DNA of 64,000 nt, from assembly GCA_028277945.1 (NCBI GenBank), contig JANQFH010000008.1, positions 195,442-259,441 of the forward strand. The letters are read 5' to 3'. The notes under the pieces were generated by a model. The model was not told where the DNA came from. It ran no database searches and saw only the letters and a list, made by a program, of their open reading frames with translations. Both the position numbers and the translations under genes were made by a program. Source of the stretch: Oligoflexia bacterium. Lineage in GTDB: Bacteria > Bdellovibrionota_G > JANQFH01. This document shows positions 10,908 through 43,253 of the stretch, piece by piece (the first letter of the stretch is position 1; each line of letters starts with the position of its first letter).

Positions 10908-11045
10908 TAAGCGCTCTGTCACGATAACAAAAGGATAGACCACCCATAGTGTCCCCAGGGGCCGATTTGCAACTAGCCAGCGCATGCGATAGACTAGATC
11001 TAAGCTAAGACAACGAGATTTTTGAACATCTTCGCGGAGATACGC

Positions 11046-12515: not shown

Positions 12516-12608
12516 GTAGGCAACGAAAATAAGACAACGAAGCTAAGTATGGGAGTGGATGGTCTCTGCTCCCGTACCTTCAAGCCAGGCATATGAGAGA
12601 TCGATTTA

Positions 12609-14607: not shown

Positions 14608-14619
14608 GATCAGCATACA

Positions 14620-17643: not shown

Positions 17644-17648
17644 GCTAT

Positions 17649-18392: not shown

Positions 18393-18395
18393 CTT

Positions 18396-19142
18396 CTACT
18401 CTCCAAAACCCTTCACAAAAAACTTCTCATCGATCAACCGCAGACCCTCATAGACCTCATACTTGATCAAGGCACCCTTGGTATCGCGGTAGAGCCCTTT
18501 GCGCACTTGTCTTGGTTTTTTGTAAAGGCCCTCAACCTTGCTCAAAAAGGCTGCCAGTTCCTCTCTACTAAAAGGGCCATGCCGTTCCCAATCGAGCCAA
18601 TCAGGGCCAATGGAGACCACCACCGATAGCTCACGGCTGCCAGGTTTTACTCCACCAAAGAGCTTCTTTGCCATCCTCTGACTGCCAAGCGTCAGGAGGT
18701 GCCAGTTGCGGCTTTCAAAATGCTCTCGCTTGTTCTGCTGATCCATAAACATAAAATAGACGCCTTCGCTCCAGGAGCTACGATCCAGATTGACGCCTTT
18801 TTTGAAGCGCTCTAAAAATGTTTTTAAATCGGCAGGTTGATCATGCCAATGCCGTATGATCCTTTTGATAAAAGACCAGGTTGAGATGACAGACATGCCC
18901 TCCTCATCTTGCGACTGATCCAGAGAGTCGAGTTTTTCTAATTCATAACCTCTAAACAGTTCCGAACCTGTATCAGGCTCTGTTACCAGCAGCAGAGCAC
19001 CATCTTTAAGTTCCACAGTATCTCCAAACTCTATAGGTCTTTCGATATCCTCAGGAACTCCAGGGATATCAATCACTGTATCTCCCTGCTGTGCAAAGGG
19101 AGAGTCTGGATGGGGGGGTCGTTTTTCTCTCTCACGCATCAC
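18396..19142 (-). CDS. hypothetical protein, possible immunity/partner protein for the upstream RES-domain protein
   Basis: 248-aa ORF whose start overlaps the stop of 19139..20923 by 4 nt; no signal peptide; acidic. Confidence 0.4.
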   Translation of the reverse strand: MMREREKRPPHPDSPFAQQGDTVIDIPGVPEDIERPIEFGDTVELKDGALLLVTEPDTGSELFRGYELEKLDSLDQSQDEEGMSVISTWSFIKRIIRHWHDQPADLKTFLERFKKGVNLDRSSWSEGVYFMFMDQQNKREHFESRNWHLLTLGSQRMAKKLFGGVKPGSRELSVVVSIGPDWLDWERHGPFSREELAAFLSKVEGLYKKPRQVRKGLYRDTKGALIKYEVYEGLRLIDEKFFVKGFGE

Positions 19143-20923
19143 TCTAGGGCCTCAAAAAGAACGACGTTAAAGCCATCTGGATTTCTTGCCGAGGGTACGA
19201 CAATACCACGATAGTGCAGCCGCGCCAATTCTCCTATTATTTGTGTTATTGAGTAATCCTCAGAGATCAAAGCTTCAGGAGCTATATTTAATAGCTCCCT
19301 GACACTTGGTTCATTAAGATCGAGCATGTTGTCGAGTGTGACATAGCGGCTTCTTGTTTCAATCACCCCCTTGACACCATGGGCTCGCATTTCCGCGGCG
19401 ATGGTCTGCCGATCGCCGCTCATGTAAAGCGCGCTTCTTCCCGGCGCTGAATAGCGATGGTTGGCGGCAATATTACCCTGCGGTATTTTCCACGAACCTG
19501 CTCGGTAAACATCACCTCTGTATTTACTTCCCTTGACAACACCTTGAACCAGCTTTTTGGTGGTATCAGGCCCCAAAGCTTGGCTCGCCCTTATCACCGC
19601 AGGCAGATGCTGCTGATCAAAGAGCTTTCTTGCCAAGCCACCACCACCGCGCCCTAGCAAACTGGTGGTCCCTCGGACCATGACCGTGCCTGACAGGACC
19701 ATAGGCACCATCATGGAGACAACTGTCTCTAAAGCCATCTCAAGCGGCAAGCTCGCCTCGACAACTCCAGTTGACGAATCCTCTTGTAGTGCCCACAAAT
19801 GGTAGTCTGCTGCCGCCATTTTGAGTGCTCCTGACAAGAACTCGCCGTCTCGGATATCTTGCACTCCCTCAATCATTAAATAGGCGGCATCTATAAGATG
19901 TGGCAGATCTGGCAGGGTTAAGGCATGATCGAGGGTAATCTCCACATGTTGCCAGATGTGTTGGGAGAGCCTCTCACCTAGATCGCGCTCTAACAGCGCC
20001 AACTCATCGAAGGTCTCAACACGGATGCGCGCCATGGAGCTGTCTGCTTCCAAATGGAGTCGACCTTTGGCCGTTGATTGAGCGCGTTCTGCTCGGTCAA
20101 TGAGTTCGTCTAATGTCTCCTGTATCCAGCGATGTCGTATGAGATCTCGCATGCTGCGAAGCTCGTGAACCCGCCGTGAGAATGCCGCGTAGCCATAGGC
20201 AACCACCTCCTTACTTGAAGCCCGTTCCACAGCCGCCAGGGCAACATCGGTGGAGGTGGCCGTGAGCCCCAGAAATAGTGGCAATCCATGTCTGTTTTCA
20301 GGAAGTGGCAACTGAGCTTGCTGTTGAAGTTGCACAAAAAGAGAGGAGTTGTGGATCATGTCACTAGCGGAACTGTGAGAAGCGAGATCGGAACCACCCC
20401 TTTCGTGGAGGGTGCGAATGTCGAGGCCGCTTGCAGATGATTCATCTCGAAGCTGATCATCTTGAGCTTGCTCTGCAGAGAGGCTTAGATGTTTGTTACT
20501 CTCTGCAACTGCAGTGTTGGCTTGAAGTAGGCTGAGGCCACGTTGCAACCCTGTAAGGTACTGAACTCTACGCCGAGCTTCCACATCACTGTGAGTCGGT
20601 GCTGAGCCTTCTTCATCCTCATCATCAAATCCACCGATCTCTCCTCTCGGGCTATCAAAGAAAGGGTCAAATCCTTCATCTTCTGTTTTGTCTTTGGGTT
20701 TTTGAGAGGAAACGATAACAATAGGCGTGTCAAAAACAATATGGACGTTGCCATCGGAGTCAACGGTCACATTTCCTGGCTCTGTGGTGTAGTCGTGCTC
20801 TCTTTCCTGAGCTGATTCAGTTTGTCCTGCATCATCTTGTGCAACAAGCTCTCTCTGCAACGGCGAAAAAAGACAAATCGTCGCGATCAATAAATAAAGC
20901 AGGCTTTTACATGAAATTTTCAT
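19139..20923 (-). CDS. secreted protein with C-terminal RES-domain (NAD-targeting toxin-like) module
   Basis: 594-aa ORF; signal peptide; C-terminal region with RES-domain signatures YRAGSW ... RYSAPGRSALYMSGDRQTIAAE ... VVPSARNPDGFNVVLFE. Confidence 0.6.
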   Translation of the reverse strand: MKISCKSLLYLLIATICLFSPLQRELVAQDDAGQTESAQEREHDYTTEPGNVTVDSDGNVHIVFDTPIVIVSSQKPKDKTEDEGFDPFFDSPRGEIGGFDDEDEEGSAPTHSDVEARRRVQYLTGLQRGLSLLQANTAVAESNKHLSLSAEQAQDDQLRDESSASGLDIRTLHERGGSDLASHSSASDMIHNSSLFVQLQQQAQLPLPENRHGLPLFLGLTATSTDVALAAVERASSKEVVAYGYAAFSRRVHELRSMRDLIRHRWIQETLDELIDRAERAQSTAKGRLHLEADSSMARIRVETFDELALLERDLGERLSQHIWQHVEITLDHALTLPDLPHLIDAAYLMIEGVQDIRDGEFLSGALKMAAADYHLWALQEDSSTGVVEASLPLEMALETVVSMMVPMVLSGTVMVRGTTSLLGRGGGGLARKLFDQQHLPAVIRASQALGPDTTKKLVQGVVKGSKYRGDVYRAGSWKIPQGNIAANHRYSAPGRSALYMSGDRQTIAAEMRAHGVKGVIETRSRYVTLDNMLDLNEPSVRELLNIAPEALISEDYSITQIIGELARLHYRGIVVPSARNPDGFNVVLFEALE

Positions 20924-22077
20924 TTTGCCAGGCTCAGAATCAACTGTAATAGAAATGTGCCGTCCCCCTCCAAGGCTTTGGCGATCTCCAACAAGAGTTC
21001 AAGCTCTTTTGCCTTTTCAGTATCTCCTTGCGCCTTCAAAGCGCTGATTCTTTTCTCAGCCTCTGCAACTGGATTGAATCCCTTGACAATACCGGCAATT
21101 CTCTCGATATCCTCTTGACTATGAGCAACAAGTACTTCCAGGTCTCCTTTCAGCTCAGCATCGCTCAACTGTGGTAACACCTCCTCCCGGATCATGTGCG
21201 TTGCTGTAGACCACGTGAAAATGGCTTCTAATGCGGCAAAGAAATCTCGATTGACCAAAACCTCTTTTTGAACCTCAAGCTTCAACGAGGAGAAGAGATC
21301 GGAAATGTCGAAAAGAAAATCAATCCGTTGAAAATCAGCAAAGTATTGTTCCTTGAGCTCCTTATAAATCGCCGCTGACAGTTCAGCGGGTGCAGCGGCA
21401 AGATAGGAGGCAAGCTGATTGTCACTGCGATCGAGTTTTCGCAGCAGAACATCAACCGCCTGTACGAGCCTATCCCCAGTCTCCAAAGCTTCTTTAAAAC
21501 CAATAATGACCTTGCGGTCCTCTTCTCGAATCCGCCGTTCCACTTCCCGAAATCCTTCTAAGTAGAGAGGATCTAATCGGTTACCAGGCGGAGGTATCCG
21601 TTCATCGATGTCTTCTCGGGTTAGCTCTGGAATAACCGCTGATAGACCGGAAGTCGCCGACAGGGCGACCTGTCGAGAGCCTGCAAGCAGGTTTCTCGCT
21701 GCATCAATGTGCGAGCGGACTTGAAAGGCGAGCGACACAGCCTGACGTATCTCTTCTCTAGAGGATGCTGTTTTAACGGCGTTGACTTTGGCAAAGGGAG
21801 CCTCCAACCCTTCTTTGGTACGGCGAAATTCGTTAAGGGCAGCCGTTAGTCGACGCGTTGACCTCGAGGCCCTTGCATAAAGACCCCGATAGTGCTTATG
21901 CGCTGCGGTGCGTCCCTCACTCTTAACGGTAGCGCTCCTGGTCTGCTCGTATTTAAGCTGGAGACGCCGCAGCTCACCTTCCAGTTCCTCTACCGACTGC
22001 GCAAAGGCAGGTGAAAGAACAAAAAGCGAGATCAGCAACGATTTTAAGACCGACATGGGTAAGTATTTAAAGCACAT
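20920..22077 (-). CDS. secreted coiled-coil hypothetical protein
   Basis: 385-aa ORF with signal peptide (LISLFVLSPAFAQS); overlaps the downstream gene start by 4 nt; similar N-terminal organisation to 54768..55964. Confidence 0.4.
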   Translation of the reverse strand: MCFKYLPMSVLKSLLISLFVLSPAFAQSVEELEGELRRLQLKYEQTRSATVKSEGRTAAHKHYRGLYARASRSTRRLTAALNEFRRTKEGLEAPFAKVNAVKTASSREEIRQAVSLAFQVRSHIDAARNLLAGSRQVALSATSGLSAVIPELTREDIDERIPPPGNRLDPLYLEGFREVERRIREEDRKVIIGFKEALETGDRLVQAVDVLLRKLDRSDNQLASYLAAAPAELSAAIYKELKEQYFADFQRIDFLFDISDLFSSLKLEVQKEVLVNRDFFAALEAIFTWSTATHMIREEVLPQLSDAELKGDLEVLVAHSQEDIERIAGIVKGFNPVAEAEKRISALKAQGDTEKAKELELLLEIAKALEGDGTFLLQLILSLAK

Positions 22078-22313
22078 TTAATGCCATCGAGCTGAGAGTT
22101 CAACTTTTTAAACAAAGTTCGTACCTTCTGAAACAAACTAGCCACCACAAGAACTGCTGCCACGCGTTTCAAGAACGACCACTTTGTCCATATAAGAAAC
22201 AAACCGTTCACGATCAAATCAGTCGTCGAAAAGCCTTCTTGTTCTTGGTGATGGCTACCGGGACGGTTCTGTGCACCAGCCCATCCGGTCCAGACTTCAC
22301 CGCTCTAAACTCT

Positions 22314-24110
22314 CTAACTCTGAGGCCGCAGGCCAATTGGAACGAGGCTAGCGAGACTTTTAGGAATACATTTCACACCAAGTCGAGCACAATTCATGAG
22401 GACAACCTCCTCTTCAAAATGGCTTGTCACAAGTATAGCCTGATCTTGAAGGTTGAGCTCTTCAATGAGATCGAGCCCGGTTTCCTTAAAGTTGAGAAGT
22501 TCATAGTCACACAGAAATAAAGCATTGTGTGTATCATTCTTCTCAACCCATGTTCTTATGGCGTCGGGTGTAGACAGATTGTCAAGTTTGATCCTATTTC
22601 CTCCTCCGTTGCGTAATGCATGAAATCGCTCTCGCCAAATCTGATGAATCGTAGGATCGTCGTCCAAGGTTACAATGCGGGAGTCTGGCGCAACTTCAAG
22701 TCTGGGTACAAACCAAGACGGAGGACTTTCTTTGGGTAAAAGCAGAGATATCTGAGTACCTTGTCCTTCCGTACTCTCAATTTTAAGCTCACCTCCCCAG
22801 CTTTCAGCGGCCACTTTTGCATGATAGACTCCAAGACCTAGACCACTATCCGTTCCCCCCTTTCCATAGGTCACTCCCTTTTGGCCCAGTTTTCCGAGAA
22901 TGTCCGGTGGTATTCCTGTCCCGTCGTCTTTTACATAGAGACACAATGTTGAATTATTATGTTGGAACAGGCCAATTTCGATGACACCCTCATCGGTCAT
23001 TGCTTCAACAGAGTTATTTACAAGATTTGAAATTACACGCTTAAGCTCAACAGCACTGACTTTGGCAAACAGTCCGTAGGATTTTTCATCCAATTTGGCC
23101 TCAATTCGGATTCCTGTTTTAGTTCGGAATTGACCCCGTTTTTCGCTGACGATACTTTCTATAATACTTGATATCAACCAAGTCCTTCTCATGGCTTGAT
23201 TGGGCCTCTCGTCATGTTGAGCCTGATGTATATTTCTGCCCAGCAAGTTGTTGGCGATATCTTTAATACGTTGGGACGCATTACGTATAAGAACGCGTTT
23301 CTCTTCCGGAATGTCTACAAGAGTGCCAGCCAAAAGATCCAATGCTGCTACAGGAGCTCGTATATCATGCGCGATTTGTTGAGCCACTTGGTAAACAGCT
23401 TCCGCCTTTTTTGTTTCGATCCTATATTGATTTGACTGAAGAGTTTGTTGCGCAAGTTTCCTAATGGAAGAGGTGAGAATAACAACTTCGGACAGATCAC
23501 CCTTGATATTTGGCTGATCAAGGAGTGAAAGATCTTCTAAGTTGCCACTTTCAGCTGTTTGACTAAGCGTGTGTAGCGGTGCTGAGATCCGATGTGCCAC
23601 TCTTTTTAGCATAAGGAAAGCTATAGCAGCGATAGTCATTAAGACAAATAGAGATACTCCCATAATCCGGTAGTATAGACCACGAATGATTCCGGTATTA
23701 AACCTCATACTAACCATAGCCGCTGGTTGTGTCTTTTCGTCGTCAAAATATACAGTGCGTTCAACGACAAATTTACTCGTCCTCGACACTTCTGCAGTTT
23801 CTGGTAAACTCTCGTAAATAACTTCTCCTCTTATGTTCGAAATAATAATGTTATCTATGGCCTCTTTTTTTATCAAGAGATTGCACTTTTCACGGATGCT
23901 GAGGTGAGAGCCGGTAAGAATTTCGTAGCGAATATTCTCGGAAAAGAGTTCTAAAATCATCTCATGTTTTGACGCAACTAAGTTATCGAAACTCTTGTTA
24001 ACCGCAAATAGAATTAGGATTCCCACAAGAATTAAACCCAATGATACTGTTATTGAAAAAGTTCTGAGTAAACTGGTGAATACAGTATGTTGACGTTTAG
24101 GCATTTCCAC
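22314..24110 (-). CDS. hybrid sensor histidine kinase with C-terminal receiver domain
   Basis: 598-aa ORF; two TM helices flanking a periplasmic domain, H-box IAHDIRAPVAAL, HATPase_c motifs (NLVNNSVEAM, DDGTGIP, GLGLGVY), REC-like C-terminus (TLDDD ... LFLCDYEL). Confidence 0.85.
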   Translation of the reverse strand: MEMPKRQHTVFTSLLRTFSITVSLGLILVGILILFAVNKSFDNLVASKHEMILELFSENIRYEILTGSHLSIREKCNLLIKKEAIDNIIISNIRGEVIYESLPETAEVSRTSKFVVERTVYFDDEKTQPAAMVSMRFNTGIIRGLYYRIMGVSLFVLMTIAAIAFLMLKRVAHRISAPLHTLSQTAESGNLEDLSLLDQPNIKGDLSEVVILTSSIRKLAQQTLQSNQYRIETKKAEAVYQVAQQIAHDIRAPVAALDLLAGTLVDIPEEKRVLIRNASQRIKDIANNLLGRNIHQAQHDERPNQAMRRTWLISSIIESIVSEKRGQFRTKTGIRIEAKLDEKSYGLFAKVSAVELKRVISNLVNNSVEAMTDEGVIEIGLFQHNNSTLCLYVKDDGTGIPPDILGKLGQKGVTYGKGGTDSGLGLGVYHAKVAAESWGGELKIESTEGQGTQISLLLPKESPPSWFVPRLEVAPDSRIVTLDDDPTIHQIWRERFHALRNGGGNRIKLDNLSTPDAIRTWVEKNDTHNALFLCDYELLNFKETGLDLIEELNLQDQAILVTSHFEEEVVLMNCARLGVKCIPKSLASLVPIGLRPQS

Positions 24111-25611
24111 CTAATCCTTTTCGGTGCAATTTCCATAATTCATGAAAAAATGTCTCTCCAAATTTTGGCATGTCTATTTGCTTTTTTAAGAGAATAGGAT
24201 AGTCAAAGGCCAGAATAGGGACAAAAAAATGTCTGCTTTCAAAATCTACCAGCTCTCTCTCGTACAGTTTTAGGCGTCGCAAGCGTTTTTTAGTAAACCG
24301 GATTGCCGAAATCCTATCCAAGAATTCTTTAACGGGAAATAATCTTTCAACGCCAAATAGCTTGCTCTGTAGAGGCCACAGGTAGCCATCTGGATCAGTT
24401 AGGCCTGCACCAAAAATAAAAGAGATCAGATCGAAATCCCCTGTCTTGTAGTAATTCAATAGCAGGGCCAAATCGACGATTCGAATATCCGGAACTAACC
24501 CTAGTCGTTCTAAAAGGGAGGAAACGCTATTGATGTGTTGCTGAGACATAAAACCTTTGTATACAACGACTCGAAATTTGTGGCCCTCAAGTTTCGGATA
24601 TTTTGTGACAAAGTTATCTTCAGTGATTTGGCTTTTTCTTGGTCCATAATAAGACATCGGAAGAGTACCCTCGGGAAGGAAGGTATGAAGAGATTTCTGG
24701 AAAGGCACTAGATTTTTCTTGATGGTGGATAGTGATGAAATAAGATAGCTTAAGTCGCGTCGTAGATTAGAGGACTTTAGATGGGCTCTATGTGTGTTAT
24801 ATAGGAAATGTAACACAAACACATTGTTGGGAAGAACCACATCAAAGCTGCTGCTATCAAGTTTGATTTTCGCAAGTTCATATGGGGCCACACCCAAAAA
24901 AACATCGAATTTGTTGGCCTCTATCAAGGTTCTTAAATCACTATAATCGTATCCTTCAACCACAAGTTTATAAATATTTTCGGAGGAAGTTCTTGGTTCA
25001 AAGCTCCAAGTTTTTCCTTTATTTGTTAGACTTGCAGTCATTAAACCGGAGCCGGTACAACAAAACGATTCTTTTTCGACAATGCCAAAAAGAGGATTGT
25101 TAAGAAGCTTTAGAAAAGGAGGATAGGGCCCCTTGAGATAAAATCTAATGTGTTGTTCGTCTATTGCCTCGACAGCATTGGTGCCTGCTTTGGTCTTGGG
25201 TTGCAGGGCAAGCTCCAAAATCGATCGTGAAGAAAAGTTTGATTCTAAAATTCTGAGAAATGAGTGCTCAACATCTTTGGCAGTGATTTTTCTTCCATTA
25301 TGAAAGCGTAGGTTAGGTTTTAGCTTAAAAGTGTATTCTCTGCCACTATCGTTTATGCTCCAACTTTCGGCTAGTTCAGACACAACAATACCTCTCTCAT
25401 TCAGGCGGACTAGACGCGAAAATACACAGGCGCTCATCATAAGGTGCGATACCGATACTATTTTCATTGGATCTAGAGTTTGTGGGAGAATGCTCACACC
25501 AATCTTTAGTTCATTGTAATTCGTCAGGTCTTTTGCCAGCAAATCAGTACTCAAAAAGCATATTAAGAATAGCACGGAGAAAATATTGAATTGTTTAGCA
25601 CTCTTTTTCAT
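24097..25611 (-). CDS. family-5 extracellular solute-binding protein, orphan
   Basis: Start chosen at ATG 25611 (MKKSAKQFNIFSVLFLICFL signal peptide) rather than the upstream in-frame start at 25701; stop overlaps the histidine kinase start by 14 nt. Confidence 0.8.
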   Translation of the reverse strand: MKKSAKQFNIFSVLFLICFLSTDLLAKDLTNYNELKIGVSILPQTLDPMKIVSVSHLMMSACVFSRLVRLNERGIVVSELAESWSINDSGREYTFKLKPNLRFHNGRKITAKDVEHSFLRILESNFSSRSILELALQPKTKAGTNAVEAIDEQHIRFYLKGPYPPFLKLLNNPLFGIVEKESFCCTGSGLMTASLTNKGKTWSFEPRTSSENIYKLVVEGYDYSDLRTLIEANKFDVFLGVAPYELAKIKLDSSSFDVVLPNNVFVLHFLYNTHRAHLKSSNLRRDLSYLISSLSTIKKNLVPFQKSLHTFLPEGTLPMSYYGPRKSQITEDNFVTKYPKLEGHKFRVVVYKGFMSQQHINSVSSLLERLGLVPDIRIVDLALLLNYYKTGDFDLISFIFGAGLTDPDGYLWPLQSKLFGVERLFPVKEFLDRISAIRFTKKRLRRLKLYERELVDFESRHFFVPILAFDYPILLKKQIDMPKFGETFFHELWKLHRKGLGGNA

Positions 25612-25616
25612 TTGTG

Positions 25617-26933
25617 TTATGATCCTGACCGCACAGAGCTCTTTCGTTTTTGTTCGGATAATAAATAGACAGAAAAAATAGAAACAACACAGATGATACA
25701 CACTGTAATCATGGCCTCTTCAACAGAAGGAGCTCCATCTCTACATTTGCCTAGGTACCAGCTGTAGAAGCCGATACCTGCAAAAGCAGGCATATTCTGT
25801 AAACTTAGAGCTGTTGCCAATTCCTCATTGTCTACTACGGAGCATAGAAGGTTAGTTGCTAATGCGCCTGTGGCTCCGACCACAACATCAGCCATAACGG
25901 CGTATACTAAGATCATGAGGATTAGCATCGTAGGGTTTAGTGAGCTGAATGTACATAAAATATACAGACTGATTGTAGCAAGAAGAGTAAAGTGAATTAA
26001 GAGGTAATTATTTGTACTTAATCTTTTGCTCATCACTAGCCTTGGTAGTACATGTCCTCTTACAATCCATCCTATTCCACCATAAGCAAAGGTAAAGAGT
26101 CCCATGATAAACCACGAGAATAGGCCGTGGTCCGCATTTCCAAACTGTCTACCCAGAGTGATCGCAAAGTAGCCCGCGTTTACTGCAGCTAACATAAAGG
26201 CTGATAGCCGTAAATAAATCGCCTTTTTGGCGACCATACTTTGCCGTAACCTGCTGATTAGATTCGATGTGCTTGGTCTCCCCCCACTTATTGAAGTATC
26301 ACCATAAATACGAAAGTCCCTGAAAAGACGATAGAATCCTGCATACCATAGCAAAATACCGATGATCAGTGTGTGATGCACTCCAATGGTGTGATAGGTA
26401 ACAAAAAGTAAGACAAAAGCCAGCAGGATAACCAAGGCTGTGAGATATTTCCCGGCATGTTGGCTGAGAGTAAAACTTTGGCTGGCCATTTTCTCTGCTT
26501 CGTTATGTCCTTTTGATAACCTACGGATAGCATCCTGGTAGAAAGCCTCCACAGATCCTGAAATCAATGGCTTTGAAAATCCAACAATGACGCCATGTAT
26601 GATAAAAAGAAGCCGAGAAAAGGTGTTCGGCATGCTCGGGAAAAGGGCCACATAGATGCCACAGGTTCCAAGGAGAATAAGAAAACCGCCCAATAGTGCG
26701 CAAGGAATTCTACCAAAACGATCCGCAACGTATCCCATTGGAACTTCAAAAATCACATTCATCAGAAACTCAATGCCCGTAAGCAGAGCAACTGTATCAA
26801 GCGGTACGTTAGCCAGCACACCAGCAGTAATACGGAAAGTGATCGAAATGAAATGAGTTGATGCGAGGTTGAGAGCTCTAAATATACCTAAACTTTTAAC
26901 ACATGCTTGAGTTTGTGCGAGGGTTTGATCCAT
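25617..26933 (-). CDS. MFS-type transporter
   Basis: 438-aa polytopic membrane protein with MFS motif-A-like loop GYVADRFGRIP. Confidence 0.7.
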   Translation of the reverse strand: MDQTLAQTQACVKSLGIFRALNLASTHFISITFRITAGVLANVPLDTVALLTGIEFLMNVIFEVPMGYVADRFGRIPCALLGGFLILLGTCGIYVALFPSMPNTFSRLLFIIHGVIVGFSKPLISGSVEAFYQDAIRRLSKGHNEAEKMASQSFTLSQHAGKYLTALVILLAFVLLFVTYHTIGVHHTLIIGILLWYAGFYRLFRDFRIYGDTSISGGRPSTSNLISRLRQSMVAKKAIYLRLSAFMLAAVNAGYFAITLGRQFGNADHGLFSWFIMGLFTFAYGGIGWIVRGHVLPRLVMSKRLSTNNYLLIHFTLLATISLYILCTFSSLNPTMLILMILVYAVMADVVVGATGALATNLLCSVVDNEELATALSLQNMPAFAGIGFYSWYLGKCRDGAPSVEEAMITVCIICVVSIFSVYLLSEQKRKSSVRSGS

Positions 26934-26945
26934 TATGATCTCTAT

Positions 26946-27779
26946 TTACACTTCTATTCTCTCTCTGACACCTAGCATAAACAACTTAATGTCCTTATCG
27001 AATTCCAGAAGACCAGATTTTGTAATAGTAGTAAGATCCTTTATATACTTGTTCTTATAACAATCTAAAATACGACTGGAACTCTGCTTGATTAACTCTT
27101 CTATCGAGTGATTCGAATGTATCCGCAAACCAAGTTCCAGCATGGCCGCCTCAGCAAAGGCTGCATGATAGATACCGAACAGTGGCCTTTTCATGTTTCT
27201 CAAAGCTGATCGGTCTTCTTTTGCCCATGGATAGCGATTCACTGTGGCTTCACTTTTTGTTGCAAAGACAATAGTAAGGTAGTGATGGCCCAACTCGTGA
27301 GCTAGAATTTCTGCCCACTTCACAGGGTCATCACTATTCATTACATATTCAATAAGTCCAAAGACTTGGGGATCAGAGGCTGATTCGTGTTCAACACCTT
27401 GCCTGGGAAAACACATTCTTGGTTTGATAATTTGCTCAAATGCAAATAGTTTCTTCCATACTACTCCGATAATTGTTCTTGCTGCAGAGTATAGTGCTTC
27501 TTTTTCTGGATAGCGTTGCAGTGAAGAATCAAAAATAATGTTACTGCCAACTACGAACTTGCTACGTGCGATATCACGAGTTATTAGATTGCTAACTTGG
27601 TCAGTTGACAGACTAAACTTATCACGATTGAAATAGATCCAAGAGAGAGTTGATAAGCTCAATTCTCTATTAATGTCTATATTGCGGAATGCTGGTATGA
27701 GCTTAAGAGCTTGCATTCCCTGCTGTCTAAATTGACTAACGTATTTTTTTGTCAGATCAATTGAGAATATAGAAGGCAT
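26946..27779 (-). CDS. HExxH-motif protein (paralog of 12609..13601)
   Basis: 277-aa ORF with AHELGHH and RPLFGIYHAAF segments; first long gene after the candidate precursor ORF. Confidence 0.55.
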   Translation of the reverse strand: MPSIFSIDLTKKYVSQFRQQGMQALKLIPAFRNIDINRELSLSTLSWIYFNRDKFSLSTDQVSNLITRDIARSKFVVGSNIIFDSSLQRYPEKEALYSAARTIIGVVWKKLFAFEQIIKPRMCFPRQGVEHESASDPQVFGLIEYVMNSDDPVKWAEILAHELGHHYLTIVFATKSEATVNRYPWAKEDRSALRNMKRPLFGIYHAAFAEAAMLELGLRIHSNHSIEELIKQSSSRILDCYKNKYIKDLTTITKSGLLEFDKDIKLFMLGVRERIEV

Positions 27780-27817
27780 TCATCATGCCAATTTTTTATT
27801 ACGTTTTAGTTGCCTCA

Positions 27818-27922
27818 CTACGACCCGGTAGGTATGCTAGCTAACTTAGCACCTAGCACACGGTGTGATTGAAAAGAGAAATTGAAGGAAACTGTCTTTT
27901 TACTTTCGTTGCTTTTTGCCAT
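27818..27922 (-). CDS. candidate precursor peptide (34 aa): MAKSNESKKTVSFNFSFQSHRVLGAKLASIPTGS
   Basis: Below the ORF-track size cutoff; ATG preceded by AGGAG at 7-nt spacing; stop lies 38 bp upstream of the HExxH gene start. Confidence 0.35.
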   Translation of the reverse strand: MAKSNESKKTVSFNFSFQSHRVLGAKLASIPTGS

Positions 27923-28017
27923 TTTCTAGCTCCTGGTTACAGATGGTTTGTAACTTGTTTGTAATTTTGTCAGTTACACATTATCTGGAATCGATAGCAA
28001 TTAATACCTTTTCAAAA

Positions 28018-28145
28018 GCAAGAGTTAGGCCAATGGGAATATCCAATATTTCAATACGTTGTAAATATATGATACTCGGAGACAGTGTGTCTGATATAAG
28101 ACATTCTGTTCACTATGAAGACAGTTTGTTTGTATTTCGAACAAT
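28018..28145. repeat. conserved ~128-bp operon-leader element, copy 2
   Basis: Paralogous to 15906..16033; contains GTCTGATATAAGAC imperfect palindrome and ACAGTTTGTTTG; lies about 95 bp upstream of the candidate precursor ORF at 27922. Confidence 0.6.
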
Positions 28146-28499
28146 AGCCTCAGTAAGGATTGAGGTAGGTTAGGCTCCATTTTTTATTCCTAGGTAACCC
28201 ACTGAAAGTAAACAAAAGGTGCAGTTGACGCAACTTGGGTTGGCACCGATCTGATGCGGCGCGCCCTTATTTGATATATTCTTGTTATTTTCATATAGTT
28301 AGCGAACCTATCTTCTGGTACACTAGTTGCAACTCCTAGAGAGTAGGGTACTAGGAGTTAATAGGGAACTAAAGTTACAAAAACCTCGGTATGAGGTTGC
28401 AATGTAACACGATAATGTATTAAAATTAAATTCTTAATTGAAAAAATAATACGTAACTTCTAGAGCTACGAACGTGTGTCATCAAAGGAGGGGGGCAAC

Positions 28500-29189
28500 A
28501 TGTTTCGCAACAAGGGTAGACGGTTTTCAAATAACGGCTTTTCTCTAACCGAGGTGATGATCTCGGTATCGATTGTTGGCATCCTCTCTGCTGTAGCCAT
28601 TCCTACGTATAAGAAACACTTCCGCCGCGCAAAAATCGCTGAGGCGCATCTGGGTTTGGCTGACCTACACAAATCCATGCAAGCGCACTTTCTCCAACAT
28701 CGTTGGTACAACGCCAATATAGATCAACTAACTAGTGACGCTAAGTTCACAGACTCAAAGTCACGGGCAATCTATGGGTTTAATGCAAACCAATATACTG
28801 GAGGTACATTCCCAACATGTAAAACCACCAACGAGGACTGCTTTACTACTCATGGGGAGGGTAATGATTTAAACGTAACTCCTGCGGATATCTTATTTGA
28901 ACGAGCCTGCCCCCAAGTGTCCTTCGGATCACTAGTAAAGTGTTCCTTTCCTATTCCGAGCTATGATCCTCGCAGCGGCGACCCTAAAGCCAGCGATTTT
29001 ACGTGGGGTCGACCAACCCGTTATGAAGCGCATGCAGTCATGGATATAGATAACGACGGCGAGTTGACAGTCTTTGGTGTTAATGAAACAGGTACGATTT
29101 TCCAGCTCTGTAATGATGGTGACAGTGTTGAAGTGGCTGGCAGTTATACTGGGGCACTTGCGGGAGATGTTATCTGTAGTAGACCCTAG
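28500..29189 (+). CDS. type IV pilin-like protein (prepilin-type N-terminal cleavage/methylation domain)
   Basis: ATG at 28500 preceded by AGGAGG; N-terminus RRFSNNGFSLTEVMISVSIVGILSAVAIP matches the prepilin G-F-(S/T)-L-x-E motif plus hydrophobic helix; Cys-containing C-terminal domain. Confidence 0.7.
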   Translation: MFRNKGRRFSNNGFSLTEVMISVSIVGILSAVAIPTYKKHFRRAKIAEAHLGLADLHKSMQAHFLQHRWYNANIDQLTSDAKFTDSKSRAIYGFNANQYTGGTFPTCKTTNEDCFTTHGEGNDLNVTPADILFERACPQVSFGSLVKCSFPIPSYDPRSGDPKASDFTWGRPTRYEAHAVMDIDNDGELTVFGVNETGTIFQLCNDGDSVEVAGSYTGALAGDVICSRP

Positions 29190-29207: not shown

Positions 29208-31196
29208 ATGCCCCGAAGATTTAACTATAACTTTTCTGGCTGGCTGAAGAAGTATTTCATTCCTCTTTTTATCTTCCTATTAAGCCTTACCACGGTCTTC
29301 AGCTTTTACCTTCTCAGTTCTCCCTCTGATCAAAAAACTGTCTTCAGCATTGTAGACCGCTCCCTCTACCACTCCTTTTTATTGCCAACAACTACCCAAG
29401 AGCTCTCTAGCAACGCCCCCATAACTATCGTCGCCATAGACGACGAAGATCTAGAGCGTTATGGCTCTTGGCCTTGGTCACGAGCGCTCTTAGCCAACGG
29501 TATCGAGGCGATTAATCGTTACGATCCAGCCCTGGTTGGGTTCTCTATCCTCATTGATCCTTTGCGCACGGTGGCCCCTTCAGAGAACGCAGCGCTATTC
29601 AAAGAACTCGCTGCCACTAAACACTTGGTTACTGCCTTTAACTTCAACTTCTCTCAACGCTTTCAAATAGGCACTGAAGAAGTCAGCTGGATCGCCAAGG
29701 CCGCTTTAGATGATCGACCAACTACAGAGGTCTCTGTCTTTCCCTATCAGCGTCCATTTAGCTTTCATGCTGCTGCACCTGAAGTCGTCAACGCCTCTGC
29801 CAACATGGGCTTTCTCAGCTACGCCAACTCTAAGGGACTTCTAGTCTACCCAACACTCTCTTACTTTGGCAGTCACTTCTACAAATCCTATCCGTTGGCA
29901 ATCGCGCAGAGTTTTAAACAGCAACAAACCCCAACAAAACTCTCCATCTTACGTAATAGAGAAGGTGTAGAGGGTTTGGAGTTTGGTAACCACACCCTGC
30001 CTACCCTTAACAACGGTACCATTCTATTGAGACCCTACAAGAAGCTCTCCCAAAGGAACGACCGTGCCTTTCCACAACTACGCTTTCGTGATCTTTTAGA
30101 AGGCAAAATACAACCGCACAAGTTGCGCGATAAGATCGTCCTGGTTGATCTAACTGCTTCAGGTTACTCACAGTCCTTCAACGTTCTCGATGGTGGTTTG
30201 GCCTCGAGACCAGTGATCCATGCCACTGCTGTGGCCAACCTGTTGCAAAACGACTTTATCCGTCGCGATGGGCGGGCCACGCTGCTAGAGACCCTATTGA
30301 TTCTCCTGGTAACCCTCTTGGTTTGGTGGTGCTCACGTAACCTCAAGGCAGTTACGGCAGTATTTGCCATCTGCCTTACGATTCCAGCTACCTTGCTCCT
30401 CATTGCATTAGCTGCGATCCACTTTGCCAACCTCTGGTTGCTGATCTCCTATCCATTAGCAGCACTGCTGATCTCCTTTCCCCTGCAGTTTGGCTACAAA
30501 CACTTTGTTGAAGATCGCCAGCGTCGCATAGTCGAGCGAGCACTCACAGGTTACACCTCAAAAACCGTGATGGACCGCTTGATTGAGAGAGGAGAGAGCT
30601 TTTTAACCTTAGGGGGTGAACGCCGTGATCTCACTATCTTGTTGTTCGATATCAAGGGTTTTACCCAACTATCCCACCGTCTGACCCCTGAAGAGACCTT
30701 TAAGCTGTTAAACCACATCTTTAAGCTTACGGATGAGATCATTATCGATCGCTTCAATGGAATGATTGATAAAAAGATGGGTGATGCTTGCATAGCTCTC
30801 TTTGGTCTTGATGGTGGCAAGGAGCATGCTCTGCATGCTGTGCAGGCAGCGCTGGCTATACAGGAGACTTTGTTTGAGCGCTTTGCTGAGCTCTCTCGCT
30901 TGGCTCACAAACAGGAGCTGGGTCCAGGTTGTATCCAGATCCGCGTTGGCATCACCACCGGTACCGTACTCCTTGGCAATGTCGGCTCTGAGCGACACAA
31001 GAACTTTACGGCCGTGGGTGAGATCGTCAACCAATGCCAACGCCTTGAGGCAGCTTGCAGTCTAGGTGAAGTGTTGATCAGTGAGGAGACCTACAGACGT
31101 TTAGGTGACCAAGTCAGGGTTGAGAAGAAGCAAGCACCCGGCAAACGAGAGGAAGAGTCTTATCTCGCTTACCGGGTACTGGGTTTAGCACATTAA
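29208..31196 (+). CDS. CHASE2-sensor adenylate/guanylate cyclase (class III nucleotidyl cyclase)
   Basis: 662-aa ORF; N-terminal TM helix, extracytoplasmic CHASE2-like region, TM cluster, C-terminal cyclase homology domain (ILLFDIKGFT ... MGDACIALFG ... GNVGSERHKNFTAVGEIVN). Confidence 0.8.
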   Translation: MPRRFNYNFSGWLKKYFIPLFIFLLSLTTVFSFYLLSSPSDQKTVFSIVDRSLYHSFLLPTTTQELSSNAPITIVAIDDEDLERYGSWPWSRALLANGIEAINRYDPALVGFSILIDPLRTVAPSENAALFKELAATKHLVTAFNFNFSQRFQIGTEEVSWIAKAALDDRPTTEVSVFPYQRPFSFHAAAPEVVNASANMGFLSYANSKGLLVYPTLSYFGSHFYKSYPLAIAQSFKQQQTPTKLSILRNREGVEGLEFGNHTLPTLNNGTILLRPYKKLSQRNDRAFPQLRFRDLLEGKIQPHKLRDKIVLVDLTASGYSQSFNVLDGGLASRPVIHATAVANLLQNDFIRRDGRATLLETLLILLVTLLVWWCSRNLKAVTAVFAICLTIPATLLLIALAAIHFANLWLLISYPLAALLISFPLQFGYKHFVEDRQRRIVERALTGYTSKTVMDRLIERGESFLTLGGERRDLTILLFDIKGFTQLSHRLTPEETFKLLNHIFKLTDEIIIDRFNGMIDKKMGDACIALFGLDGGKEHALHAVQAALAIQETLFERFAELSRLAHKQELGPGCIQIRVGITTGTVLLGNVGSERHKNFTAVGEIVNQCQRLEAACSLGEVLISEETYRRLGDQVRVEKKQAPGKREEESYLAYRVLGLAH

Positions 31197-33940
31197 GGCA
31201 AATTGGGATCAATTGTAAACGTTCCCTGGGTGGTCTCCTCTAAGCCATTGTCATACAAGACCGTGGCGCTGACGTTAATTGGTTGGTCCTGCGCGGTGAT
31301 AGGTTGCGACACGTCACCAATAAGAGCACGGTTGTAGAGTTTAACGGTATGGGGTGAATTGGGCTGCAACATACCCTGGGTACCATCACCCCAATCAATG
31401 TTGACGCTGACAATATCAAGCGTTGGGTTAAGCAGTTCAGACATACTTGCATCCACAAAGAGCCACATTGGGTCTTTAAAAGGCACGGCTGAAGCGCGTA
31501 GGACAAAACCATTCTGAGGTGTTGATGGAGGAGGATCATCCGGTGGCTTGATCATTGCTTTGGTCACGAGGTAGCCAGGGCCACGTTTTCCATCGGCCAG
31601 GGAGTTTAATTCTAGGATGACCGTATCGCTGTCTGTGGCTGCATCCAGAGGTATAGTAACAGTGACTCCTTGTAGCTCGGTGTTTTTGTAGGTGTTGACA
31701 ACGGTTTCAATAGTACCGGTGGTGTCCAGCTTGATAATGGTGAGTGTGTCTTGATTGCCGGTATCGTCAAAGAAGAAGCGAGTTAGGTTATCAAAGGTGA
31801 GCATCATGCCCCCTGCAGCTGCAGCTCCAACCACGGTCTTTTTCTGTCTGAATTTATCCACCAAATCAGGGTAGGGACGTGGGGATTCAAGGTTGGACCC
31901 ATCATCTGCTGATTCAACAAAGCCTGGTGGGTTGGTAAAGCTGCCAACGCCTCGGGAAGCAAAGGCCTGTTGGATATCTTGGCTGTGCAGGCCACCAAAC
32001 ATCAGTTGATCAGTTGCTTGTAAGATGGTGGGAACATCGGGCAATCCATCCAATGAGGTGAAGCTAGCAACAGATTCTTGCATGATTAGGTAGGCTAAAT
32101 CGCCACGCATTTTGCTCCATTCCCAACCGGCAGAAGAACAAATCCGACTATCTTCGTGTTTTTCGCCAACAATGTCATCAGGAAAGGTAAGGGTGTTGTC
32201 GACGTTGCGGATGAACTGGAAACCAAAGTTCTTTGCATAGTACGGAGCAATTTCCGGGAATTTCAACATCAACGCAGAGTTTAGATCAGCAAAGCACTCG
32301 TCAATCAGCTCGTTGGCCGGGCCGCCAGTAAACGGGTAAATACCACCACCACGTACATGGTTAGCCCAGTGCTGCCACTCATGATATCCTACACTAGCGT
32401 CCCTCGATCCTTCAAACGAAGGACCGGCATCAAAGATTACCTTGCCAGTAATCGAATCATAAAAGTTTCCGAATGCACTCAAATTGATAGCCTCTGCTAG
32501 AGCGGCTCCTGGTAGGCCTGGGGGGTGGTCTAGAGGACCTGAGAATAAGTCGTCTAAGCTGAGGAGCTCAAAGGCATGTCCTTGGTCTGTGAGCCAACCG
32601 AGCACATTCACTTCAAGAGCGTGCAGTTTGTCAAGCGGAGAGCCAGCAGTCAAATAGCCGGTAAAATCGAGATCAGCTTCAAAAGCACGTTCAAACGGAG
32701 GCTCAACGATCGTTTTGACAAAATTGTTTTGTAGAAAACCCGTACCATCCACAAAGATCGGCTTGCCAAAATGAGTATGGTCTCCATCGGGATCTTGAAC
32801 ATCACCAATACCCACAGCCGCTATCAAAGGATTTTTCACTCCAAGAATGTCGCCATTTTCTGCATCAAAATATACTATCCGCTTGGTTTCTCTGTAGACT
32901 CGTTTACCATCATCGAGAGTTCTAGAATAGGCAAAGTCTGCATGTCTGCCGTTGTCTACGAAGTGTCCCTCTACCACAGCCTTGTCAACCACCTTGGGTG
33001 TAGTCTGAGCGGCATCTTTTTCTATTATGGCTCTGCCATCGTGAAGGATATTAGTATTAGCAACCTTGTCGGCATTGTAGGTAGTCTCTACGAGAATGCC
33101 CTTATCCATAATCTCGATGGATTCAATTTCCATCACGACGCCAACGGTTTTTGGAACACGTCTAGAGGTGTAATAGGTCTCTAACACATCGAGCTGTGCG
33201 CCTTGCCATCTGCTAATAATCTCTCGTTCACTCAACCACTCACTCGAGTCGACTGTTTCCTCAGGACGCGGGTTATCAAGCATTTGTATGGCTACTTGGG
33301 TAAGCGTGCCGGCGTTGGCTTGCCCGCTACCAACCAATTCAGTAGATCTCTGTCCACTAAAGAGATTTCCACCTGAGCTTTTTACCAAGGGTAGGGCCTT
33401 TTGCTCTCCTGGCTGTAGTGCCAATCGTTCAACGATCAACTTGGCGATCTCTTCAGGATCTTCTGGCTTCTCTATAGGAGGCTCATAGGCTGAGAAGAGC
33501 ACCTTCACCAGGCCACCAAAGACTGGCAGCTCTCCTAGCTTTTGTTTAAAGATAACCACGGTTGTGCGCTTTCCAGGCACGATTGTGGGGTCTTCTAGCT
33601 CATCGACACTTATTTCTAGCTCGGCGGCATTAGCCCGCAGAAACTCTAGGGCAAAGTCTTCGTAGTCTTCATTACTGTAGTGACTCTGACTACCCAATTG
33701 GTTGGCTAACGAGTGCCCTCGGATACCATAGACACGCTTAATACGGGTATAGTTAGGGTGGTTGGTATTTTCTTGCCAGGTCTCACCACTATATAATTGA
33801 TAGTAGCGAAGATCTTCAGAAGGCGCTGCAACCAGTTGTTGCTGGGTGACGACTCCCAAGAAAAGCAGTGGCAGGAGCAAACTCCCTGCCTTGACTAGAA
33901 AAGTTCTAGGACGACTGAGGCTCATGTCACTATCCTCCAT
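31193..33940 (-). CDS. large secreted protein with HExxH-like motif (possible metallopeptidase)
   Basis: 915-aa ORF with signal peptide; HEWQH motif followed by an acidic ELIDECFAD segment; family not assignable by eye. Confidence 0.4.
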   Translation of the reverse strand: MEDSDMSLSRPRTFLVKAGSLLLPLLFLGVVTQQQLVAAPSEDLRYYQLYSGETWQENTNHPNYTRIKRVYGIRGHSLANQLGSQSHYSNEDYEDFALEFLRANAAELEISVDELEDPTIVPGKRTTVVIFKQKLGELPVFGGLVKVLFSAYEPPIEKPEDPEEIAKLIVERLALQPGEQKALPLVKSSGGNLFSGQRSTELVGSGQANAGTLTQVAIQMLDNPRPEETVDSSEWLSEREIISRWQGAQLDVLETYYTSRRVPKTVGVVMEIESIEIMDKGILVETTYNADKVANTNILHDGRAIIEKDAAQTTPKVVDKAVVEGHFVDNGRHADFAYSRTLDDGKRVYRETKRIVYFDAENGDILGVKNPLIAAVGIGDVQDPDGDHTHFGKPIFVDGTGFLQNNFVKTIVEPPFERAFEADLDFTGYLTAGSPLDKLHALEVNVLGWLTDQGHAFELLSLDDLFSGPLDHPPGLPGAALAEAINLSAFGNFYDSITGKVIFDAGPSFEGSRDASVGYHEWQHWANHVRGGGIYPFTGGPANELIDECFADLNSALMLKFPEIAPYYAKNFGFQFIRNVDNTLTFPDDIVGEKHEDSRICSSAGWEWSKMRGDLAYLIMQESVASFTSLDGLPDVPTILQATDQLMFGGLHSQDIQQAFASRGVGSFTNPPGFVESADDGSNLESPRPYPDLVDKFRQKKTVVGAAAAGGMMLTFDNLTRFFFDDTGNQDTLTIIKLDTTGTIETVVNTYKNTELQGVTVTIPLDAATDSDTVILELNSLADGKRGPGYLVTKAMIKPPDDPPPSTPQNGFVLRASAVPFKDPMWLFVDASMSELLNPTLDIVSVNIDWGDGTQGMLQPNSPHTVKLYNRALIGDVSQPITAQDQPINVSATVLYDNGLEETTQGTFTIDPNLP

Positions 33941-39021: not shown

Positions 39022-39038
39022 CAAAATGTGAATGAGTT

Positions 39039-40130: not shown

Positions 40131-40144
40131 ATGCCTCCCATCAG

Positions 40145-40258
40145 TCTATGCGGGTAGAGAAAGGGGAGGCTTACCTAGATCCCTACAGTCACGCCACGTA
40201 TTACGACAATCTTCTCCAATTTATCTAAATCTATGTATTCTCGTCTTCTTTTTTTCAT
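40145..40258 (-). CDS. candidate precursor peptide (37 aa): MKKRRREYIDLDKLEKIVVNTWRDCRDLGKPPLSLPA
   Basis: Below the ORF-track cutoff; ATG preceded by AGGAG at 6-nt spacing; stop lies 14 bp upstream of the 39039..40130 gene. Confidence 0.35.
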
Positions 40259-41000: not shown

Positions 41001-41116
41001 AGTGTGTTGAACTTGAAATAGGTCTGCTACCTAAGCGAATGCTTTCCTACATTCCTATTGAAGTAGTTGGGCATAAATTACGTTAGTGGTTTTAACAAAT
41101 ACTAGTTAAGGTCTTG

Positions 41117-43131: not shown

Positions 43132-43253
43132 TGGTCTGACATATCTTGGTTGTCACCCTACAAACTACACATAGATTGTGTCAAAATTGAACAGTTTGTT
43201 TGAAATGGAGACAGTAACAAACCAAGTAAAAACTAACTGATTTTATGCCTGTG

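Follow-up and report, generated by a model that had tools for sequence, protein, structure and literature searches.

The 64,000-nucleotide stretch of DNA analysed here (the window) belongs to contig JANQFH010000008.1 of an Oligoflexia bacterium assembly (GCA_028277945.1), and it encodes, on the minus strand at 26946-27779, a stand-alone enzyme of the alpha-ketoglutarate (aKG)-HExxH family. As judged from family profiles and a predicted fold, its product of 277 amino acids (aa), read from an ATG start, is shown to be a member of the Fe(II)/aKG HExxH oxygenase family of the ChlH type and not a zincin protease. The gene lies in a compact operon, cassette C, that is read here as a circuit that would make, export and sense a modified, autoinducer-like peptide, with a precursor family of its own and an origin separate from that of the nearby cassette B; this reading is given an even chance. 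The enzyme itself is a divergent new member of a known family, which automated annotation would already name, while the operon architecture and the precursor family appear undescribed.

The HELGH motif of the enzyme occupies residues 161-165, and the product scores 43.6 bits against the NCBIfam model TIGR04267 ('aKG-HExxH-type peptide beta-hydroxylase', IPR026337), for which the cutoff is 40. A Pfam scan of the product gave no matches of any kind, and none of the peptidase family models in Pfam or NCBIfam was matched. A word-indexed search recovered nothing but the query itself among 5.8 billion proteins. HMMER, run in full against 1.84 billion representative proteins, recovered 52 relatives with E<=1e-3, 35 of them with E<=1e-10; nearly all are 260-290 aa in length, and the best is 39% identical. 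This recurrence indicates that 26946-27779 is a conserved gene and not a chance open reading frame (ORF), and with 52 representatives among 1.84 billion the subfamily is rare. In an alignment of 27 relatives, all of which match TIGR04267, residues S135, H161, E162, H165, R198, P199 and H205 are invariant.

Structure prediction points in the same direction. An AlphaFold2 model built with the 27-sequence alignment has a mean predicted local distance difference test score (pLDDT) of 95.6 and a predicted template modelling score (pTM) of 0.93. When this model was compared with the PDB using Foldseek, the only matches at E<=1e-3 were four ChlH chains of entry 8s5f (E 1.7e-5 to 1.5e-4, TMq 0.59-0.69), which is titled 'HExxH domain of ChlBHExxH, a novel alpha-ketoglutarate dependent oxygenase', and the next fold match was SjiH (22ob, E 3.7e-3). 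No zincin fold was matched significantly in this comparison, the best protease-like matches having E>0.3. The family profile also matches the ChlH sequence (E 2.9e-8), with the ESxSD, HExxH and S..R..RP..G..H blocks aligned, and residues H161, E162, H165, R198, P199 and H205 fall on HEHRH...REDLRPPSGLLH of ChlH. The aligned HExxH, R-P and H positions are conserved across the whole family, and the roles of these residues are putative. Sequence searches of the PDB with either the single protein or the family profile gave no protease at a meaningful score; MupS, the sole match of the single-protein search, was judged spurious.

The window contains four cassettes that pair a peptide-modifying enzyme, known or putative, with further genes, as follows:

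Cassette A, 3907-8248, minus strand: solute-binding protein (SBP) at 6689-8248, YcaO at 5737-6675 and hybrid kinase at 3907-5727, by Pfam matches
Cassette B, 12393-15888: small ORF, HExxH, YcaO and a major facilitator superfamily (MFS) gene; both enzymes
Cassette C, 22314-27922, minus strand: small ORF, HExxH, MFS, SBP and hybrid kinase; HExxH only
Cassette D, 35658-40258, minus strand: small ORF at 40175-40258, DUF4135/LanM-N-like protein at 39039-40130, SBP at 37483-39042 and kinase at 35658-37532

Exactly two TIGR04267 HExxH genes are present in the window, at 12609-13601 (plus strand) and 26946-27779 (minus strand), along with exactly two YcaO genes, at 5737-6675 (minus strand) and 13582-14607 (plus strand); the ORFs of cassette A lack an HE..H motif. 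The original prediction, made from the letters alone, had stated that cassette C carries only the HExxH protein, cassette A only YcaO and cassette B both, and family scans of the window confirmed this distribution. Its central observation, a second HExxH paralogue without a YcaO partner, likewise stands: the HELGH-bearing ORF of 277 aa passes TIGR04267, and its operon holds neither a YcaO gene nor a remnant of one. A tblastn search with both YcaO proteins of the window found no remnant near 22300-28500 and nothing further window-wide. Additionally, the genes of cassette C overlap or lie <=12 nt apart, except where 38 nt separate the small ORF from the HExxH gene, and this tight packing leaves no room for a decayed gene. 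The absence of YcaO from cassette C is thus genuine and not the result of decay.

The genes and elements of cassette C, all on the minus strand, are listed in the order of transcription:

28017-28032: weak sigma54-type -24/-12 element TGGCCTAACTCTTGCT, ~95 nt upstream of the precursor ATG
27818-27922: candidate precursor MAKSNESKKTVSFNFSFQSHRVLGAKLASIPTGS, 34 aa, with AGGAG before the ATG, ending 38 nt 5' of the HExxH start
26946-27779: the aKG-HExxH family enzyme
25617-26933: MFS transporter, putative peptide exporter (weak match to Pfam MFS_1)
24097-25701: family-5 (peptide/nickel type) SBP (SBP_bac_5, 1.9e-31)
22314-24110: membrane-bound sensor histidine kinase whose C-terminus resembles a receiver domain, making it a hybrid kinase (HATPase_c 1e-19, HisKA weak)

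Relatives of this operon were gathered from other genomes, giving twelve loci of which ten are distinct. Loci L001-L004, L022 and L023 came from exact-protein look-ups and the rest from genome and metagenome scans: species-representative genomes gave L006, a Bacteriovoracia metagenome-assembled genome (MAG), and L007, a Bacteriovoracaceae MAG, and metagenomes added L009, L010, L013 and L014 along with some duplicates. The successful scans used an 8-sequence alignment, as the 27-sequence alignment was too diverse for the pattern search; a genome scan with the single enzyme protein as query returned nothing. Where the contig suffices, the order of this C-type operon is SBP_bac_5, small ORF, HExxH, MFS and sensor kinase, the last being a hybrid in several loci. 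The HExxH-MFS-kinase order is found in L001, L002, L003, L006, L007/L008, L010, L013 and L023. Contigs L004 and L014 break off beyond the MFS gene, the latter also beginning at the HExxH gene. The MFS proteins of the relatives, encoded directly 3' of the HExxH gene, are 27-39% identical to that of cassette C. Since this synteny holds across loci whose enzymes are only 31-40% identical, the enzyme is tied to its neighbouring genes. YcaO was found in none of the ten distinct C-type loci examined.

Several relatives extend the operon with further regulatory genes. In L003, L006, L007, L010 and L013, a response regulator with REC and Sigma54_activat domains lies 5' of the SBP gene, and between the two is a conserved ORF of ~65 aa with an N-terminal His in an HDF/HDL/HG context:

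L003: 4221-4418
L006: ~6164-6380
L007: ~6150-6390
L010 and L013: ~4200-4433

This small protein may be a minimal phosphotransfer protein, with a histidine phosphotransfer (Hpt) role offered as a guess. In L023 (GCA_964560765.1, CAZLMG010000042.1), a gene for a multinuclear iron oxidase (MNIO; MbnB/TglH/ChrH) and a 62-aa ORF follow the kinase gene at 10898-11967, and this added MNIO implies that tailoring enzymes have been swapped at some evolutionary depth. L001 retains only a C-terminal remnant of the SBP frame 5' of its peptide gene (4929-5610), and beside it, on the other strand, is a fragment that by eye resembles the C-terminus of a tyrosine recombinase; this suggests that a rearrangement removed the SBP.

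In most of the relative loci, homologous small ORFs stand in the place that the candidate precursor holds in cassette C, immediately 5' of the HExxH gene. The peptides of the relatives share the motif F-N/D-L-x-hydrophobic-x4-hydrophobic-hydrophobic-G-E-x-R-A/G-S, which is common to ten loci, including L022 and the divergent peptide of L023, and they end in a conserved R-[A/G]-S-x C-terminus. Their sequences, some given in part, are:

L001: MKKSKKIGVKRRSFNLSILKNKVIGEIRGSFP
L007: MKTNKKLGIKRRSFNLALLKNKLIGEVRASYP
L006: MKNRKRSFNLAILRNKLIGEARASY
L002: MNEFSFNLEIHEDEVLGEARASGL
L009: MSTVTFNLEIHEDQILGEARASM
L003: ...EFEFDLSVLDDEVMIAERGSFDH
L010/L013: ...VLVSLEIFDDEIISESRASM
L022: ...AIDFDLDLHLDVTMGETRSSHAA
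L023: ...MEFDFAVYTDAVIGEERASF (opposite strand, divergent, upstream of the SBP gene)

The motif-bearing peptide of L023 (...EFDFAVYTDAVIGEERASF) is encoded on the opposite strand 5' of the SBP gene. All the peptide genes of the relatives start with ATG, each after a GGAGG-like Shine-Dalgarno sequence. Compared pairwise, these genes show 5-8 synonymous codon changes at conserved residues, a pattern indicating that selection acts on the peptide. In the window, MAKSNESKKTVSFNFSFQSHRVLGAKLASIPTGS retains the SFNF..VLG...AS layout, with Ala and Leu in place of the Glu and Arg of the relatives. It ranked 1st among 2534 six-frame segments of the window against profiles built from the relatives only, at weak scores (E 0.09 with 8 peptides, 1.8 with 10), and on account of these scores the window precursor is treated as probable and not proven. 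With this in mind, 27818-27922 is considered the probable precursor gene of cassette C. None of the candidate precursors was matched by an NCBIfam model.

The region upstream of the precursor gene holds a possible promoter. The element TGGCCTAACTCTTGCT departs from TGGCAC-N5-TTGCW at two positions, with the GG/GC core intact, and chance matches this good are common; it is kept as a lead only. The idea of a sigma54 promoter as a shared feature was dropped, as none was seen in the relatives and chance matches are frequent. Further upstream, a sigma54-type element with one mismatch, TGGTACACTAGTTGCA (28316-28331, plus strand), lies 5' of a type IV pilin-like gene (28476-29189; N_methyl motif, ComP_DUS-like) that is transcribed divergently from cassette C. 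A short hairpin, GGCATGATGAATGCC, at 27775-27789 spans the start codon of the HExxH gene and might alter the translation of the enzyme relative to that of the peptide.

The remaining genes of cassette C would supply export and sensing. The MFS protein scores 29.2 bits against MFS_1 (E 5.7e-7), under the gathering cutoff of 33.4 bits. The SBP gene likely starts at ATG 25611, which would give the protein a signal peptide; from residue 31, counted from the listed start, the translation reads MKKSAKQFNIFSVLFLICFLSTDLLA, and the mature protein is predicted to begin near residue 57. The window ORFs scanned include no gene for an ABC permease or ATPase, and this orphan SBP gene overlaps the start of the kinase gene. 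An SBP gene adjoining a sensor kinase gene is a known mark of SBP-activated kinases (PMC11113362). A hybrid histidine kinase/response regulator model of the NahK/ErcS type aligns with the kinase over residues 246-585, and its receiver domain is weakly detected, the C-terminal 138 aa matching Response_reg at E 0.034. The sensor kinases of cassettes A, C and D are mutually paralogous (33-39% identity), while the tailoring enzymes of these cassettes differ, and their SBPs, together with a further protein of the window termed SBP_E, share 27-42% identity among themselves.

Directly 3' of the kinase gene and on the same strand are five genes (16150-22077) with almost no family matches. One of them encodes a 594-aa protein that begins with a signal-like sequence and ends in a RES domain (Pfam 3.6e-12), and the 16150-17643 protein has a 27% identical paralogue at 55970-57538. 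On the other side of cassette C, a signalling gene at 29208-31196 (plus strand) encodes a CHASE2 sensor fused to an adenylate/guanylate cyclase domain.

As proposed, the circuit would begin with the 34-aa peptide, which the HExxH enzyme would oxidise by side-chain hydroxylation. The targets of hydroxylation by characterised aKG-HExxH enzymes in ribosomal peptides are His, Asp, Phe, Gln/Asn and Pro, and two of these enzymes, PflC and PosC, also remove a C-terminal AxxX tetrapeptide oxidatively to leave an amide (PMC12636437; PMC13060819). A similar oxidative cut at a small residue near the C-terminus, giving an amide, would be the alternative chemistry here: the R-[A/G]-S-x C-terminus of the C-type peptides recalls the need of PflC and PosC for a small residue at their ARMD cleavage site, which makes oxidative C-terminal trimming a concrete alternative to hydroxylation. 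The MFS protein would then export the modified peptide, and the orphan SBP would bind it in the periplasm and switch the adjacent hybrid kinase, in a manner resembling LuxP/LuxQ. In the relatives, the small His protein and the sigma54-dependent response regulator, which are not adjacent to cassette C in the window, would complete the relay.

Several observations weigh against this circuit. Each functional step beyond membership of the aKG-HExxH family is drawn from gene order. The SBP of the window sits between the MFS and kinase genes instead of upstream of the peptide as in the relatives, and it is only ~23-26% identical to their SBPs, which match SBP_E better; given this different position and low identity, its orthology with them is not established. 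Neither a sigma54 regulator nor a counterpart of the small His protein is present in the 64-kb window. In addition, L004 and L023 lack a peptide gene between the SBP and HExxH genes, the operon of cassette C encodes no leader protease, and MAKSNESKKTVSFNFSFQSHRVLGAKLASIPTGS is a poor match to the motif (GAKLAS against GExRAS in the relatives), as its profile E-values of 0.09 and 1.8 reflect. The reaction of a new aKG-HExxH member is not predictable at present (PMC12636437; PMC13060819), and the residue modified in the cassette C peptide cannot be predicted.

The relation of cassette C to cassette B bears on the origin of the circuit. The features of cassette B are:

12330-12345, plus strand: perfect sigma54-type -24/-12 element TGGCACACAATTTGCT
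12393-12515, plus strand: candidate precursor MKDAKKTKRQQSKSSKKIFSPIKDKLLDTAMSTITYDVTG, with a TAMSTIT(Y/W) motif
12609-13601, plus strand: first HExxH paralogue (TIGR04267, 66.4 bits; 41% identity to its L019 orthologue)
13582-14607, plus strand: YcaO (Pfam YcaO 2.8e-9)
14620-15888, minus strand: MFS gene (MFS_1 24.1 bits, under the 33.4-bit gathering cutoff; E 2e-5)

The element TGGCACACAATTTGCT lies ~35-50 nt upstream of either candidate start codon for the cassette B peptide, a placement which argues that the listed start of a 66-aa ORF at 12315 is unused. The same unit recurs in loci L019 and L020, where a 41-aa ORF is followed by an HExxH gene like that of cassette B (41%), YcaO and an MFS gene; the MFS encoded after YcaO in these loci is 32% identical to that of cassette B, and relatives of the cassette B YcaO are 40-44% identical. 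The motif TAMSTIT(W/Y) is common to MKDAKKTKRQQSKSSKKIFSPIKDKLLDTAMSTITYDVTG (...KLLDTAMSTITYDVTG) and the 41-aa ORFs MDNTLLDVAMADAIEFAEIKEEVLATAMSTITWSIMPEPSK of L019 and L020. More distant relatives of the cassette B enzyme, in L015 and L018, follow EamA and LysR genes without YcaO; in L015 the enzyme gene is further flanked by a 54-aa ORF on its upstream side and by an MFS gene on its downstream side.

The two HExxH enzymes of the window are 28% identical over only 121 residues, corresponding to the catalytic core, a divergence too deep for a diversifying-selection test between them to be meaningful. Each is much closer to proteins of other organisms than to its paralogue in the window; the cassette B enzyme, for example, is 38% identical to P0049, a protein of the same scan. 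The candidate precursors of the two cassettes are unrelated, as are their MFS proteins, and cassette B has neither an SBP nor a kinase. On these sequence comparisons, cassettes B and C are two separately conserved systems, and C is not B minus YcaO. This refines the original prediction in three respects. The comparison it had suggested, of enzyme repertoire with precursor sequence, showed that the repertoire follows the precursor family, with C-type operons free of YcaO in ten loci and the B-type unit intact in L019 and L020. Its description of the cassettes as otherwise similar suits A, C and D, which share kinases and SBPs, but not B, which has neither. Modular gain and loss of modifying enzymes, which it had proposed, holds only at deep distance, the MNIO of L023 being the one direct case among C-type loci; the idea does not extend to C as a version of B without YcaO, given the low identity over 121 aa and the unrelated precursors.

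It could nevertheless be argued that cassette C is a sister of B after a recent loss of YcaO (or its gain in B), the two producing variants of one peptide scaffold. Both enzymes match TIGR04267 and are encoded 13 kb apart in a region rich in similar cassettes, and the MNIO of L023 illustrates how the C-type genes may gain a tailoring enzyme. This origin is very unlikely, as the enzymes share 28% identity over 121 aa and have closer relatives in other organisms, the precursors and MFS genes are unrelated, B lacks the SBP and kinase, both architectures are kept as units elsewhere and C has no YcaO remnant; the present data point toward separate TIGR04267 clades for the two enzymes. The adjacency of peptide and enzyme genes might instead be coincidental, with 27818-27922 untranslated and the substrate of the enzyme encoded elsewhere. 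The weak profile match of the window ORF and the lack of a peptide gene at that position in L004 and L023 would fit this account, which is nonetheless improbable: the ORF has a rightly placed Shine-Dalgarno sequence and ATG and tops the 2534 segments in both profile searches, the peptide genes of the relatives carry synonymous substitutions, and L023 has a motif-bearing peptide nearby on the other strand.

Other explanations concern what the enzyme and its product do. The original prediction had considered that the HExxH proteins might be ordinary peptidases unrelated to their neighbours, and this was not found for cassette C, where the fold and profile are those of ChlH, no Pfam peptidase is matched and synteny is conserved. 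A narrower version is that the enzyme is a metalloprotease that cuts by hydrolysis, either to remove the leader or to trim the peptide. The HExxH motif has an invariant Glu, the operon encodes no other protease, and PflC cleaved leaderless substrates hydrolytically (PMC12636437). Such a role has little probability given that no peptidase family is matched, the significant fold matches are all aKG-HExxH oxygenases with no zincin among them, and the invariant R198-P199 and H205, whose roles are putative, align with the ChlH motif. It is also conceivable, though rather unlikely, that the product is an antimicrobial or predation-related ribosomally made and post-translationally modified peptide (RiPP), with the SBP and kinase serving autoinduction or immunity (compare NisK/NisR) or the sensing of foreign or prey peptides. 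Many RiPPs are antibiotics, some relatives come from predatory Bacteriovoracia MAGs, cassette C encodes an export pump, and the operon encoding a secreted RES-domain protein lies directly 3' of the kinase. Set against this, conservation in the peptide is limited to a very short C-terminal stretch that is kept across distant loci, which suits a receptor-matched ligand better than a fast-evolving toxin; furthermore, no recognisable immunity gene is present, and a sensor module stands beside the enzyme in every locus. Signal and antimicrobial functions are not mutually exclusive.

The make-export-sense circuit invites a broader and more doubtful proposal, namely that the window encodes parallel, orthogonal channels for modified peptides (A, C and D), of a kind undescribed in diderm bacteria. 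Each channel would combine a peptide with YcaO (A), the aKG-HExxH enzyme (C) or the LanM-N-like DUF4135 protein (D), and each would have its own SBP and kinase. All of them could feed one sigma54 regulator, as the Lux channels of Vibrio feed LuxO, and the C-type system, conserved in predatory Bacteriovoracia, could coordinate group behaviour or predation.

Neither the literature searched nor NCBIfam yielded a description of the C-type operon, of its precursor family or of the presence of this operon in Bdellovibrionota-type genomes. It was not until 2024 that aKG-HExxH enzymes became known as peptide oxygenases. The few characterised so far all come, to our knowledge, from clusters regarded as natural-product clusters. 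If the circuit is real, the family makes signalling peptides as well as antibiotics, and diderm, probably predatory, bacteria sense ribosomal modified peptides through periplasmic binding proteins, whereas peptide communication of this kind is mostly associated with Gram-positive bacteria. In addition, the small size of the partners (a peptide of 24-41 aa and an enzyme of 277 aa) offers a minimal substrate-enzyme pair for probing the reaction outcome in the family.

The surroundings of cassette C hold further genes of interest. Upstream of cassette A, the sole small ORF on the right strand is (TTG)NHHLSVVLRNNLSKNETHLCWLSC (8323-8400, minus strand), which has a Cys/Ser-rich end that would suit a YcaO substrate and is without a convincing ribosome-binding site; in the word-indexed search, the cassette A YcaO had no relative besides itself. 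In cassette D (39039-40258, minus strand), a stand-alone 363-aa protein is encoded beside a 27-aa ORF, MKKRRREYIDLDKLEKIVVIRGVTVGI. Its family matches are confined to the end of DUF4135 and to the N-terminal region of LanM (Pfam 4.3e-10; TIGR03897 at 7e-7 over 34 residues). Genes for an SBP and a hybrid kinase of the cassette's own come next, and a LanM dehydratase-like domain without a cyclase domain is unusual in a sensor cassette. Divergent from cassette D, at 41114-44740 (plus strand), are genes for an MFS protein, a 267-aa protein without a family match and SBP_E, which is 42% identical to the cassette C SBP; its listed start is equivalent to residue 66 of the latter, and as listed it has no signal peptide. 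A third HExxH motif, HEWQH at residue 520, occurs in a 915-aa protein with a signal-like N-terminus (31193-33940, minus strand), which matches no Pfam or NCBIfam model, TIGR04267 included, and may represent an undescribed kind of secreted metalloprotease. Toxin-antitoxin and related genes also flank the cassettes, encoding HicA (1.4e-16) with an HTH antitoxin-like partner (3147-3773, minus strand), a Fic protein (9717-10907, plus strand) and a HipA kinase (50651-51907, plus strand). An Rfam scan of the window found no family present.

Among known systems, the closest to the enzyme is ChlH, the HExxH domain of ChlB (8s5f), which is reported as the founding aKG-HExxH beta-hydroxylase (Morishita et al. 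2024, cited in PMC12636437 and PMC13060819). The two belong to the same NCBIfam family and share a fold (TMq 0.69) and the ESxSD, HExxH and R..RP..G..H blocks, and ChlH acts on a ribosomal peptide. ChlH works with a radical SAM cyclophane synthase, as a fusion or as a separate partner, and requires a pre-formed macrocycle, whereas the enzyme of the window stands alone, is ~15% identical by structural alignment and is the sole tailoring enzyme of its operon. PflC and PosC of Pseudomonas are also stand-alone HExxH enzymes encoded beside a precursor and transporters, and their recognition of a small residue near the C-terminus (ARMD) resembles the R-[A/G]-S-x end of the C-type peptides; unlike cassette C, their clusters have GNAT and MNIO-nitroreductase genes and long NHLP-type leaders, and no SBP or kinase is reported for them (PMC12636437). 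Like cassette C, the cassette B unit of the window, L019 and L020 has an enzyme of this superfamily, a small peptide encoded upstream and an exporter of the MFS type; it differs in its YcaO partner, its Thr/Ser-rich TAMSTIT core and its lack of an SBP and kinase.

In Vibrio, LuxP/LuxQ-LuxU-LuxO form a phosphorelay in which a periplasmic binding protein acts together with a hybrid sensor kinase. The SBP and hybrid kinase of cassette C may be likened to LuxP and LuxQ, and in its relatives the small His protein and the sigma54 regulator would stand for the rest of the relay; several parallel sensor channels within one genome region would be a further resemblance. The likeness is offered as an analogy only. 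The proposed ligand is a ribosomal modified peptide instead of autoinducer 2 (AI-2), the SBP belongs to family 5 and is not a LuxP-type sugar binder, and the sigma54 regulator is missing from the 64-kb window. Among Gram-positive bacteria, the modified-peptide pheromone systems Agr AIP/AgrC, ComX/ComP and nisin/NisK rely on kinases that bind the peptide directly. As in these systems, cassette C would modify and export a ribosomal peptide, to be sensed by a histidine kinase in the membrane that the same locus encodes. It would differ from them in interposing a periplasmic binding protein between peptide and kinase, in using an Fe/aKG oxygenase as the modifying enzyme and in operating in what is apparently a Bdellovibrionota-type diderm.

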